DNA of 64,000 nucleotides from Callorhinchus milii (taxonomy: Eukaryota): NCBI RefSeq assembly GCF_018977255.1, contig NW_024704765.1:9734001-9798000 (forward strand), read 5' to 3'. The notes beneath the pieces are model-generated. The model was not told where the DNA came from. It searched no databases and was given only the letters and a program-made list of their open reading frames with translations. The position numbers were made by a program, and so were the translations under genes. This document shows, in pieces, positions 29,566 through 35,242 of the stretch (position 1 is its first letter; each line of letters begins with the position of its first letter).

Positions 29566-32500
29566 CTAGATTTGCTGTGGTGTCATCCTCATCTTCTTTG
29601 AATGGATACTCAGTTCTTCCAGGGCCTTCATTTTAGACAACCGCTTCTCAAGTTCTTTCTTGCACTCGTATTTTGTATTCTTCGCCTTCTGAATGGAGCA
29701 ATGTGCATCAGTTGCTAAACCTGCTTCGTCCACTTTTATAACTTCCTGCAAAGAGAAAAAAAAATCCTTGCGTTTGATATAGCGCCTTATCATGTATTTG
29801 AGGCGTCTCAATGCGCTTCACAGAATATACTGTAAAGTGAATTGACTGTATATTTTGTGGGCAAAACACGGCAGCCAATTGCGCACAACAGCGTCCCACA
29901 AACAGTCGTAGATTTGGTTGACCAATTTATTATTATTATCTATTGACGATTTACGTTAACCTTTAATATTACGATCTAATAAACTGCTGAGACTGAGTCA
30001 ACTGGCTGAATTCCTTCTGTTTCTCCGAGTTACAAGGTAGTAATGTGATGAGGGGGTGATGGATCTGGAACTAAACATTTAGTGCCACGTTTACTTTGCT
30101 TCTGGTTGCATAATGACAAGGAGTAGGAAGCTAGGGTTATACTGCCTTCTTCACATTGTTCTGAACCAGAGCTGAACAATTTGGCCACTTTTTTTCATCT
30201 AATATATATCAAATGCAAGGATTTTATTACATTACCTGCAGCTCCTCATTGGACAAGCTGAACTCAGGGCTGTCCTTTTTCTCAAGGACTCCAATTATGT
30301 GAGGATGCAGGCACTTTCGATTTGAGTTTGCATTTGAGCAATCCATTTGATCTGTTCCTTTGGCATCTTCTGAATCTAGAAACATGCAACATTTTATAAA
30401 GCAAACAAGTAATTTTTCCTGCATAATAATAATCCCTGCATTTGATATAGCGCCTTATCATGTCATTGAGATGCCTCAAAGCTCTTCACAAAGTGAATTG
30501 ACTGTATATTTTGGGGGTGAACATGCTAAATGCTAGTAGAAAGAACTTTTAGCAACCAAAACGTCTCCAAGTACTTCACACAAAGTAATTGTCGGGTGTT
30601 AATGACCATTTTTGGAAGCAGCTGACATAGCAAGGCACTCGACGAAACAATTAAGAAATTGTCTTCACTTTTATATAAATATCATGGAAAATAAATGTAT
30701 AAAAGCTTTTTACAAAATCAGATTAATTAGAAATGAAATGAATGTTAGACAAATTGACAGCTCACTTATTAGAAACCAAACCATTAGATATTATGGGGAT
30801 GCATTTGGAGTGAGAAGTGAATACAAAAATCAAGTGGAAAACTCCCACTTTATTTTTGAAACAGTGGTGTTTTCTTCATGGTGAATCACAAGTATATGAA
30901 ATGTGCAGATGAGACTTAATTCATTTAACTTCTGTTCAGTTTTTTTAAAAAAAGTAAAGATAGCCAGAAAAAAAAGCACAAAATATCGCTAAGAATAATA
31001 ATTCCTTGCATTTGATATACCGCTCTATCACATCGTCGAGATGTCTCAAAGGGCTTCACAGAATACACTGCAAAGTGGATTCACCGTGTATTTTGTGGTT
31101 GCAACGTGGCAGCCGATTGGGTTCATGTATGATAACATTTACTTTTTTTATAAAAAAGGTACAGAGATGGGAGTGAATGAACAGCAAAGAAGCAGATTGA
31201 GTTAGGTTTCATTTATAATGAAAAGGTTGGGCTAAAAAGCACAGACCATCATTTACTGGCGCTTCTGCCTTCAGGTACTGTTCTAACAACATTTTAGTTT
31301 GCCGTTCTTCCTCTCGCTTGTTGAGGGAATGTTGAAGTGTGTTCTGCAGTCTTTCAGCTCCTTTCAAGGTTTCTTTCAGTTCCTTTGCCAGTTCAGCAGG
31401 TGGTGCTTTTATCAGGGCCTAACAGAATTAAACACAAGGCGTCCTGCTGAGGGTGAAAGCTATAGCATGTTTGACTGTCCTGCTTAAGTCAAAATGGGTA
31501 ATACAGTAAAACTGATCTGTATAAATCGTATAATTGCCTGTGTCGTACATCTACCCAAGTCCCGTTCAAGAGTTTATATTCTATGCAAGTTTGGCACAAC
31601 TCATACTTTACATAAATATATGCTCCCGACTTTACTATAAACATAATCTAGGGTTAAAAGTAGATGTTCCTTTTTGAGTTTTCTTTGTTGTCAGTAGTTT
31701 TTCCTGCATCTTGTTTCAACGCTGACATTTTTTTTTACTGAGCCTTTATACAGTAAACCTCACATAAGTCAGTTGGGAACCATACATTTAATATGATTTA
31801 TGCAAAGTATGAGTTATGTCAATCTTGCATAGAATATAAACTCTTGAATCGGAACTTGGATAGATCATAATAATCATCCTTGCATTTGATATAGCGCTTT
31901 TCACGTCTTCTAGACTTACTAGTCTTCTAGAATGTACGACTTGAGTGATTATACAATTTATACAGATCAGACTTGTGCGAGTTTGACTGCAATAGGATTT
32001 CCCATTGTCAGAATGAATAAATTTGCACATTTAATAGAGGAATGCATGGAGTTGCCACTTTGTCTTACCTGCAGTTCAGATTCAGACATTGTTATAATTC
32101 GAGCGAGGTTTTCCCTAAACTGTCTGGCTAAGGGCTTCCAATTACTGGAATGTTCAGCAGAATCCACCTGGTCTTCAGAATATAAGCCAATTGTAGCACC
32201 ACCCTTTTGAGCACCCAAAGGTGCCTCGAGTTTTGGTACAACTGAAATGGAGAGGATTTTTACAGTAAATTAGTAGTGACCGATCGCAAGACTGCTAATA
32301 AGCAACCAATTTACACAAAGTAATCAATGTCCCACGAACAGCTAGTGCGTGGCCAAATTTAGGGTGAGAAGTAAATGCAAGCCAAGATAACCAGTTGGAG
32401 AAAACTCCACTTTATTTTTGAAACAGTGGTGTTTTCTTCATGGTGAATCACGAGAGCATGAAGTGTGCATGAAAGGAGCTGGGACTTAATTCATCCACCT

Positions 32501-35242
32501 TTATAAAAAAAATTATAAAGATATCCAGGGAAAAAAAATAGGAGCACAAAATTTCACTATTAATAATCTTTGCACTTGATATAGCGCCTTATCACATCTT
32601 CGTAACCTCTCAAAGTGCTTCACAGAATACACTGCAAAGTGGAATAACTGTGTATTTGTGGGTACAACGTGGCAGCCAATTGCGTACGTGTATGATAACA
32701 TTTTCTTTCAAAGGCAAGGTACTGAGGTAGACGTGAAAGTGCAATAAAGAAGCAGATCAAGTTAGGTTTCATTTATAATTAAAAGGTTTGGCTGCAAAGC
32801 GGACGGACCAGCCTTTTCTGGCGCCGATGCCTTCAGGTACAGTTCTAACAGTTCTTTCGCTTGACGTTGTTGCTCTCGCTTGTCGAGGGACTGTTGAAGG
32901 GTGTCCTGCAGTTCTTCAACTCCTTTCAAGGTTTCCTTCAGTTCCTTTGCCAGCTCAGCAGGCGGTGCTTCTATCAGGGCCTAACAGAACTAAATTAGGA
33001 TTTCCCATTCCCAGAATTAATACATTTGCACATTTAATGGAGGGTTGCACGGACTTGCCACTTTGTCTTACCTGAAGTTCAGATTCAGACATTGTTATAA
33101 TTCGAGCGAGGTTTTCCTGAAGCTGTCTGGCTAATAGCCTCCAGTTACTGGAATGTTCAGCAGAATCCAGCTGGTCTTCAGAATATAAGCTATCTGCAGC
33201 ATCATCCCTTTGAGCACCCAAAGATAACTCGAGTTTTGGTGCAACTGAAATAAAGAGAGGATCTTTATAGCAGACTAGTAAAGTGACTCATCCCAGGATG
33301 GGTATTAACCAACCAATTTACATACAGCAATGTCCCACAAAGACAGGAAGTGTGTGACCAAATTTATCTGGTGGGTTGTTGGGTGAGGGCACTGTGGAAA
33401 AACTCCCTTCTCTCTTCCCTCCAGTCTTGCAATATTATGTTCCTATTAGCAGGTATGTCAAAAGGCTGGGAAATTGGTATTAAAATAATCTACTAAGGTC
33501 TATTAAACTGATGAAACAGGCTGAATGGCCTCCGATTCCCTTTTCCCTGCTGGAAGAGTTGGTGAAGTCCATGATAGGATTCTATTTTACATAGTTTTTG
33601 AACAAGTGAGTGCGACAGCCAAGAGTCGTTTCTTGTTCCATGAAAGTCTTTTCGTCTTTGAGTCGCTCATGCCTAGCCGACTTACCTACATTAACAGCAA
33701 CCCATTCCTCATCTGAACGGAGGATCATGAACATTGTGTTTTTCGGTTGGCACAAAAAGTAGTCTTCATCATCAACTATTGTTCCATCTTCCTCAAGTAC
33801 CACAGAAGGTTTCTCCTCATCAAGTTTATCCAAATCTAGTTTTTGCTTCCCTAGATTTAAAAAAAAGTAACCACTATATAGGAAACATCATAGCTGAGTA
33901 GCTTAGAGGTTACAAGTTTCATTTTTATAGTGCCCCTCACGCAGGGTAGCGTCCCAGAGTGCTTGTCAGTGGTGGAGCTTAACGCCAAGCCGAGGTGACC
34001 GTAAGCACAGTTGAAGAGGAAGGTCTTCAGGTGTGATCTGAAGATGGGGAAGGAGGGGACAAACTGGAGGGATAGAGGAAGGGTGTTCCAGAGTTTCGGG
34101 ACTTAGTGGCTGAAAGCACAGCCATTGATTGATGGGCATGAGGGATGAGCAGGAGGCCAAAGTCAGTTGAGCCGAGGCAGCGGGTCGGAGAGATACTATC
34201 TAAAACTATACCTGGGCTACATTTTTACATTGGGGTTTTTTAAAAAAAAGACACCTCAACCGTTGAATATTTTAGTAGCGGGAAAGGTAACTGTGGAGCG
34301 TTGTACCCAATGCAAATTTAGACTAAGACACAAAATTCAACCATAAAGTTTACGAGGGCAAGGAATCTGCTTGGCTGATTTTGTTGGCTTCAGGTCAGCC
34401 TTCAGCCACTTTGCCCCCTCTCTCTGGCCAGAGCCAAGGATTCGGGACCCCGGAGGGCGGGTTGGGGGTGTAACCGCCGGAGTCTTAACCAGCTAAAGCC
34501 GCATAGCCTGCCATTGGGAGCGCTGTCTGGAATGCTTTCCCGCTGCTTGTCCAGCTGGGTCCACTCTACACGCCGGGGCTTTGGTTTGCGGGGCCGTCCC
34601 AGTGACTGACTTAATCCCTCAAAGGAAAACAGTAATAAATTGGGTCATTTCAATCCGCGGCTGTTTCTGTGTGTGTGTGGGACGGACGGACGGAGCCGTG
34701 CGCAATCCGCTGCCGCGTTTCGCCCACGAAGTGTACAGTCGATTCGCTTTGCAGCCTATTCCTGCGAAGCGCCTTTGAGACGTCTCGAAGGCGCGATAAG
34801 GAGCTATATCTAATAATAATAATTATTAATAATAATAATAATATCTCTGGACCCGCAGCTCGGGGGGAGCGCAAACCCTTCCCTATCCGGCACCTCGGGG
34901 TGGGGGGAGCGTCCCGTCCACTTGCCACAGGGGACTGCCATCACAACACAAGCGCCGCAGGTGCCATTGGTGGTTGTTTTAGTGTCTCATCGACGCCATT
35001 TTCCCCCCAAACCCCCCACTCGATCATGTGAAAGGCCTCACATCTGTGTTCTTTGTCCATCTGTGGGGGGGGAGGGGGGGTGTGGGATGTGGGGGATTAT
35101 ATAGATTATAAAGCGCTTTATTTTTAATCAACACAGTACCTTCGCTCAGCAGCTCCTGGAGAGAACACGCGGAGACTCGGCAACTCCGACTGCGTCTGGC
35201 GTCGCAGACACTGTGACCAACTCGACCTCTGCTCGACTCCAT
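29566..35242 (-). CDS. DFFA: DNA fragmentation factor subunit alpha (ICAD/DFF45) with internally duplicated exons 3-4
   Basis: Exons 35242-35140 ([34 protein letters not shown]), 33850-33686 (..[40 protein letters not shown] motif), 33244-33072 (..[29 protein letters not shown]), 32980-32809 ([22 protein letters not shown]), duplicates 32241-32069 and 31418-31247, 30375-30236 ([16 protein letters not shown]), 29745-29566 (..[10 protein letters not shown]). Phases are consistent. Predicted length is 425 aa with both modules and 310 aa with one. Confidence 0.93.
31503..31991. mobile_element. Two inverted copies of a small pogo/Tigger-like MITE
   Basis: Copy B (31751-31989) has imperfect TIRs CAGTAAACCTCACATAAGTC / CAGTCAAACTCGCACAAGTC with TA on its left flank. 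Copy A (about 31505-31639) is its reverse complement with small deletions. Confidence 0.6.

Follow-up and report, generated by a model that had tools for sequence, protein, structure and literature searches.

When two exons of a conserved gene have been copied in place and in frame, what does the gene do with the second copy? The question is raised by a window of 64,000 nucleotides from the chimaera Callorhinchus milii (assembly GCF_018977255.1, contig NW_024704765.1, positions 9,734,001 to 9,798,000; ‘the window’ denotes this whole stretch), the minus strand of which carries DFFA, the gene for ICAD (DFF45), the protein that restrains the cell-death nuclease CAD. Exons 3 and 4 of that gene are present twice, as two head-to-tail cassettes termed A and B. 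The answer has two parts: chimaera DFFA is a real, expressed variant of a known gene, of a kind (the included tandem exon duplication) that is itself already known; and cassette B is probably a tolerated, caspase-cleavable spare unit within a repeat protein, with cassette A carrying the conserved role.

The whole gene comprises 8 exons, with intron phases 1-1-0-1-0-1-0 and a product of 425 amino acids. Its features are given below in window coordinates, where R2 denotes the unit encoded by exons 5 and 6, and X1, X4, X5 and X11 denote the four sequencing runs (among 14 listed) whose contigs were analysed. No listed run is recorded as RNA; X1, X4 and X5, which represent three studies, are taken as RNA, since GT-AG introns are precisely removed at their joints, whereas X11, without such joints, is treated as DNA-like.

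35140..35242, minus strand: DFFA exon 1, coding part (103 nt); first part of CIDE-N; joined to exon 2 in X4 and X5 contigs.
33686..33850, minus strand: DFFA exon 2 (165 nt); remainder of CIDE-N (Pfam PF02017, E 4.5e-16); joined to exon A3 in X4 and X5.
32357..33366, minus strand: duplicated unit A (~1.0 kb), comprising the end of intron 2, exon A3, an intron, exon A4 and part of intron 4, as delimited by blastn of unit against unit.
33072..33244, minus strand: exon A3 (173 nt); linker with the caspase-type motif DQLD116 and the unit’s first helices (helices from the model); Pfam DFF-C positions 10-49.
32809..32980, minus strand: exon A4 (172 nt); rest of helical unit A; donor G/GTCCGT; Pfam DFF-C positions 50-105, E 1.1e-17; joint to B3 in 3/3 RNA-like runs.
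30803..32361, minus strand: duplicated unit B (~1.56 kb), in head-to-tail order with A; the letters AAAT recur at the A/B junction and at each outer end; X1 record 5 crosses the junction.
32069..32241, minus strand: exon B3 (173 nt); linker with DQVD231; Pro241 and Phe246 in place of Leu126 and Leu131 of A; spliced from A4 and to B4.
31433..31992, minus strand: extra stretch (~560 nt) in intron 3 of unit B only; contains a SINE-like piece; corresponds to the gap between the two aligned pieces, with a 44-nt match to the intron 4 repeat.
31247..31418, minus strand: exon B4 (172 nt); rest of helical unit B; Asn295 and Gln309 in place of Asp180 and Leu194 of A; donor G/GTCTGT; joint to exon 5 in 3/3 RNA-like runs.
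30236..30375, minus strand: exon 5 (140 nt); DQMD331 and the first half of the older, diverged unit R2; Pfam DFF-C positions 120-162 at 23.5 bits (cut-off 25); profile match to exons 3-4.
29566..29745, minus strand: exon 6, coding part; second half of R2, to the stop; residues 332-414 match the solved DFF-C structure 1iyr, E 5.6e-08; joint from exon 5.

An initial annotation of this DNA had claimed two intact copies of the exon pair together with a duplicated flanking intron. The four exons lie exactly where it had placed them, each with AG/GT ends and no stop, and its count of residue differences between the copies (14/57 and 15/57) was reproduced, with nucleotide differences at 47/345 positions. 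Units A (33366-32357) and B (32361-30803) stand head to tail and align in two pieces (84% and 78%); two copies only were found, with no third in the genome or in the window. The four letters AAAT are common to the A/B junction and both outer ends, which is weakly suggestive of a microhomology-mediated duplication. As for the intron, the motif by which its duplication had been recognised does sit in duplicated intron 4, where the copies at 32408-32451 and 30846-30889 share 43 identical nucleotides that include AATAAA on the gene strand. This is the longest identical run within the duplicated intron 4, and it occurs only twice in the genome; lying behind the weak donors GTCCGT and GTCTGT, it might act as a poly(A) site within the intron and so yield shortened forms. 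A search of Rfam with 28500-36000 (E 0.1) returned 0 matches, and hence no known RNA in the conserved intron stretch.

The simplest objection to any tandem duplication is that the second unit is an assembly artefact, or that its exons form a silent pseudo-exon pair. Either is barely credible here. The copies are 14% apart, contig pieces of both units (with at most one other letter each) are present in the DNA-like run X11, and X1 record 5 (32213-32590) bridges the junction between them, so that a haplotype artefact is excluded, as had been argued from divergence; and copy B, rather than lacking spliced reads, is spliced in three studies.

The manner of that splicing is the central observation. 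Joints A3>A4, A4>B3, B3>B4, B4>E5 and E5>E6 (E denoting exons outside the cassettes) were each found in X1, X4 and X5, and E1>E2>A3 also in X4 and X5; none of these DFFA joints was found in X11. The joint A4>B3 (32809>32241), singled out beforehand as the mark of a transcript with both modules, had depths of 85 (X1), 17.4 (X4) and 57.2 (X5), with contigs flanking it at 15.3 and 21.6 in X4 and at 65.3 and 141.9 in X5. Because this joint occurs in 3/3 RNA-like runs, the copies do not behave as mutually exclusive exons, one per transcript. Inclusion of A and then B in series is demonstrated joint by joint, and the serial form looks dominant; minor skip forms are compatible with the same data.

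The initial annotation had offered either a 425-residue protein with both modules or isoforms using one of the two. The former is borne out, both by A4>B3 and by RefSeq record XP_007900349.1. For the latter, the idea that the cassettes act as alternatives and yield 310-residue isoforms at meaningful levels is unlikely. Every skip form (A only, B only, or A3>B4) would be in frame at 310 amino acids, the 3' contig of X5 is the deeper one, and two database records, P0005 and P0002, have exactly that length. However, A4>E5 (32809>30375, A only), E2>B3 (33686>32241, B only) and A3>B4 were all absent among the 15 joints listed (with 736 others), contigs being prone to drop rare forms, and the contigs of X4 and X5 show no branching at E2>A3, A3>A4 and B3>B4>E5, i.e., where skips would create it. 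As for the two records, P0005, the A3>B4 model, corresponds to the short cut that an assembler would take through the 42-nt stretch common to A3 and B3, and P0002 is A-like until a 25-nt identical run in exon 3 and B-like beyond it, a switch that cannot arise by splicing because it sits inside an exon. Assembly collapse is the simplest origin for P0002, and a recombinant allele a possible one. If the latter, unequal crossing-over between A and B would have left some animals with a single hybrid unit, and the change from A-like to B-like around an identical run is what a crossover product would look like. Such a polymorphism in copy number is nevertheless very improbable, since both units are present in 4/4 runs analysed, since collapse or template switching explains the record more simply, and since 25 identical nucleotides would be short for a crossover.

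The gene model itself is not new: XP_007900349.1 (DFFA isoform X1) is identical to the 425-residue translation, both modules included, and the database proteins identical to that translation carry the name Callorhinchus milii DFFA. RefSeq isoform X2 (370 amino acids) likewise contains both modules; it ends in VMKL, without the exon-6 part, an ending explained by a further GT donor that lies 5 nt beyond exon 5 (window 30231-30235). The joint from that donor was not among the 15 listed. In effect, isoform X2 presumably resembles mammalian ICAD-S.

What the duplicated exons encode can be read from domain matches and a predicted structure. The N-terminus is a CIDE-N domain (PF02017, E 4.5e-16; 1f2r_I, E 3.5e-12; fold Z 11.8, rmsd 3.0 over 89 aligned residues), followed by matches to DFF-C (PF09033), for which all four duplicated exons exceed the cut-off, covering positions 10-105 in each pair. 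Motifs of the form DxxD lie in the linkers, at DQLD116 (A), DQVD231 (B) and DQMD331 (R2), and predict three sites of cleavage. The middle region of ICAD binds CAD, and its C-terminal region is required for chaperoning. In the mouse, cleavage of ICAD falls after residues 117 and 224, and the protein serves CAD as chaperone as well as inhibitor (PMC1935020); these two sites align with D116 and D331 of the chimaera protein. An AlphaFold model of the 425-residue form (pLDDT 78, pTM 0.33) consists of CIDE-N and three helical parts, with the DxxD motifs held in low-confidence linkers, and the predicted helix pattern is similar in A, R2 and the single unit of invertebrate proteins discussed below. 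Fold searches with the 425-residue model and with an invertebrate one-unit model gave CIDE-N and ubiquitin-like folds as top matches and did not list DFF-C, leaving the module itself unprobed; none of the nine PDB sequences that matched provides a solved structure for the middle part of ICAD. The partner gene, DFFB, has exons on the same contig. It showed no doubled exons (profile positions 1-40 being without a match) and no internal repeat, and a predicted complex of its residues 28-352 with the core of B scored 0.00, a result that speaks neither way, having been obtained without alignments and with an uncertain fold for the partner. As a separate observation, a DFFB model of Polyodon spathula (P0294, 642 amino acids) is about twice the usual DFFB length, and its self-comparison printed no internal repeat.

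A further question is whether two spliced copies are also two constrained copies. The ratio of nonsynonymous to synonymous divergence (dN/dS) between A and B, proposed in the initial annotation as a check, is 0.87 (dN 0.147, dS 0.169, p 0.71). Divergence of the exons (47/345) is not lower than that of the duplicated introns (101/630; p 0.35), and the 29 residue differences compare with a neutral mean of 30.9. Insertions and deletions behave otherwise, with 0 in 345 exon nucleotides and 16 in 630 aligned intron nucleotides (Fisher p 0.0009; p 0.012 with only the 10 non-homopolymer events). It thus looks as though the reading frame of the duplicated exons has been under selection, and as though their amino acids have been under relaxed constraint, mostly in B, which leans away from the altered CAD chaperoning or inhibition that the initial annotation had considered possible. 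Relatives, here 118 non-Callorhinchus proteins from the best 120 of 243 matches, point the same way: branch lengths on the module tree are 0.33 for B and 0.053 for A, and at 25 near-invariant columns (those conserved in at least 97% of the 118) B departs three times (Phe246, Asn295 and Gln309) and A once, with 102/118 comparison proteins having no departure at all. Pro241 of B, moreover, sits early in the first helix. The alleles of X1 carry Q291K and M305V in B and R102K and D107N in A, and Q291K hits a further conserved column. The description of both copies as ‘intact’ therefore holds for frame and splice sites, and fails for B at three residues that are near-invariant in single-unit DFFA. 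The 42-nt identical run common to A3 and B3 has p 0.065 and does not call for gene conversion as its cause.

Several points weigh against reading B as the drifting spare and A as the working copy. By count, the asymmetry is not significant (of 21 polarised sites, 13 are B-derived and 8 A-derived; p 0.38); the 118 proteins that serve as the comparison are also those from which the 25 columns were defined; A is itself altered, its Q184 occurring in 0/118 of them; a dN/dS near 1, when it comes from one pair of sequences and 114 codons, has low power, and can hide a mixture of purifying and positive selection; and the lack of stops is by itself weak (p 0.11). On the side of the transcript, the 3' contig of X5 is 2.5 times deeper than its A4-B3 contig, for which 3' bias or a skip form is a possible cause, and the 42-nt stretch breaks the contigs, so that the two modules never fall within one record.

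The suggestion that ICAD is a repeat protein to begin with comes from its last two exons. When profiles of exons 3-4 and of exons 5-6 were built from the 118 proteins and compared by HHalign, they matched at 92% (E 6e-7) over 82 columns with an ungapped template, from the DxxD motif through the phase-0 exon end, which is in register between the two. The profile score of 40.6 is to be set against maxima of 17.0 and 21.0 for shuffles (40 + 40) and 9.6-12.6 for CIDE-N and reversed controls. The published DFFA intron phases are 1-1-0-1-0 (PMC2426694), and contain the 1-0 pattern twice. In a wider search (best 150 of 1040), CIDE-N followed by a single unit was found in 68/146 new proteins, some of which may be fragments; of eight such proteins looked up, seven were named, all of them from invertebrates (brachiopod, hemichordate, amphioxus, chiton and snails). 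The invertebrate single unit matches R1, the unit of exons 3-4, at 99.5% and R2 at 97.1%. Exons 5-6 thus look like an ancient copy of exons 3-4, and DFFA like an internal repeat protein; the initial annotation had noticed neither this nor the doubling of the unit in other lineages. A repeat may already be implicit in domain databases, in which we assume a CATH DFF-C-type domain to be marked twice in human DFFA. No paper on the chimaera duplication or on an internal repeat of DFFA was found, much ICAD biochemistry residing in subscription journals outside the search. In the apple snail Pomacea canaliculata, two short, unit-only records (P0289 and P0291) lie near a DFFA-like record on one contig and are possibly local copies of the unit.

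Further changes in the number of units are seen among the relatives. The plain layout holds in 114/118, and two more differ by split hits alone (the apparent extra domains of P0022 and P0032 were left out of the count for this reason). The exon 3-4 unit is doubled in the remaining 2/118, both predicted models: the sawfish Pristis pectinata (XP_051895550.1, 430 amino acids; copies 79% identical) and the toad Rhinophrynus dorsalis (KAM4702889.1, 360 amino acids; 62%), whose copy identities argue against haplotype artefacts. Seven shark proteins and two from Mobula have a single exon 3-4 unit, and no DFFA of another chimaera was named among the best 120 of 243 matches. A tree was built from 26 rows out of 124 modules; in it the copies cluster within each lineage (chimaera 98/97, toad 91/81, the sawfish pair not settled at 71/13), and constrained trees were rejected both for a clade of second copies (p-AU 1.6e-14) and for chimaera with sawfish (4.3e-05). 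The doublings are thus likely of separate origin; one ancient duplication common to all three is rejected, unless concerted evolution has erased its signal. In the snake Erythrolamprus reginae, R2 is the unit that has multiplied: model P0126 (936 amino acids) has R1 and seven R2 units, 54-100% identical and each behind a DxVD, although the two copies that are 100% identical may be an assembly error. A second DFFA model from that species, P0272, has 962 amino acids. Every unit of the sawfish, toad and snake proteins retains its DxxD. An uncharacterized protein of the lamprey Petromyzon marinus (LOC116950527, P0163, 612 amino acids) consists of CIDE-N, R1 and about three weak R2-like units (16-29 bits), i.e., some four helical units separated by PGPVD-type repeats. 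Record P0164 (492 amino acids) has CIDE-N and one unit joined to about 300 further residues similar, by eye, to a uracil-DNA glycosylase; two gene models may have been fused here.

These parallels bring in the main competitor to a passenger role for B, namely that B has been kept for its function: it would offer a third caspase site, or a second unit in contact with CAD, and would tune at what threshold, when or in what stoichiometry CAD is released, with adaptive gains elsewhere. This is possible, if rather unlikely. In its favour, B is included in the main transcript in 3/3 RNA-like runs, has kept its DxxD and the 42-nt identity with A, matches 22/25 near-invariant columns, and belongs to a pattern in which the exon 3-4 unit was doubled in two other lineages and R2 multiplied in two more. 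Opposed to it are the lack of any excess of synonymous change, the failure of the differences to avoid conserved columns significantly (p 0.09 to 0.23), the faster evolution of the downstream copy in the toad as well (0.83 vs 0.18), the plain layout of nearly all relatives, and a DFFB in which neither doubled exons nor an internal repeat was found.

The reading of B as a tolerated spare unit would run as follows. A stretch of ~1 kb was duplicated locally, head to tail, and with it a two-exon cassette with phase 1 at start and end; the main transcript joins the two cassettes in series, for a predicted ICAD of CIDE-N, A, B and R2, in which each unit would be a loose linker with its DxxD and then a helical part. 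The conserved role towards CAD most likely falls to unit A. The frame of B would have been kept while its residues drift because a frameshift upstream of exons 5-6 would cost the only DFFA copy found its C-terminal part, and caspase-3/7 would cut B free along with the rest, at three sites rather than two. The event would repeat the apparent early-vertebrate origin of exons 5-6 from exons 3-4, and phase symmetry together with a built-in cleavage site may be why extra units are tolerated in several lineages.

The interest lies less in the chimaera case than in this pattern, in which ICAD would be built from repeats and their number would have altered on several occasions. If the middle part of ICAD is a sister to the solved C-terminal domain, and each has a caspase site of its own in front, there is a simple model for the two cleavage sites, and also for the growth of ICAD from a one-unit ancestor. 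In its boldest form, the argument makes ICAD a variable-copy repeat protein, CIDE-N plus n caspase-site/helical units, with n of 1 in invertebrates, 2 in most jawed vertebrates, 3 in chimaera, sawfish and toad, about 4 in the lamprey and 8 in the snake; the extra units would be selected, their number setting the caspase activity needed to free CAD or the CAD molecules held per ICAD. That proposal is speculative, and on balance doubtful. Natural forms with one, two, three and more units do provide a series for probing each unit’s share in chaperoning, inhibition and the caspase threshold, and if B is a passenger it still illustrates clearly how an included exon duplication can keep its frame while its residues drift.

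The surroundings of the gene can be described briefly. A SINE-like repeat of 100-150 nt is present in dozens of copies across the window at 70-85% identity, including within the DFFA introns. Human DFFA presumably stands head-to-head with PEX14; what is taken, by eye, to be a PEX14-like start lies near 36810 on the plus strand and points away from DFFA. A Pex14_N match was found on the plus strand at 9826087-9826176 of the contig, 28 kb beyond the window end.

Set beside known systems, the chimaera gene shares with vertebrate DFFA its CIDE-N and Pfam DFF-C domains, its matching caspase sites and its first introns, with the phases of 1-1-0-1-0 given in PMC2426694; it differs in having 8 exons instead of 6, 425 residues instead of ~300-330, and three DxxD motifs instead of two. 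The 8-exon layout is a variant feature and no reason to doubt DFFA orthology. Record XP_007900349.1 has the identical 425 residues, under a name that is silent on the repeat. The sawfish and toad proteins have the same doubled exon 3-4 unit with DxxD kept, but as predicted models of likely separate origins, and the toad model, unlike chimaera DFFA, is without the exon-6 part; snake and lamprey likewise have extra helical units in series after CIDE-N, but there it is R2 that is multiplied (7 and ~3 units). The closest precedents in kind are 4Ig-B7-H3 (PMC3172298) and helix H2d of COE/EBF (PMC2394523), where a tandem exon duplication has an included copy and lengthens the protein by one module, with a functional difference reported for B7-H3 (PMC3172298) and a vertebrate-wide copy in COE (PMC2394523). 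In chimaera DFFA both copies are likewise in frame and spliced in series, whereas its additional copy is lineage-limited and known from sequence and splicing.

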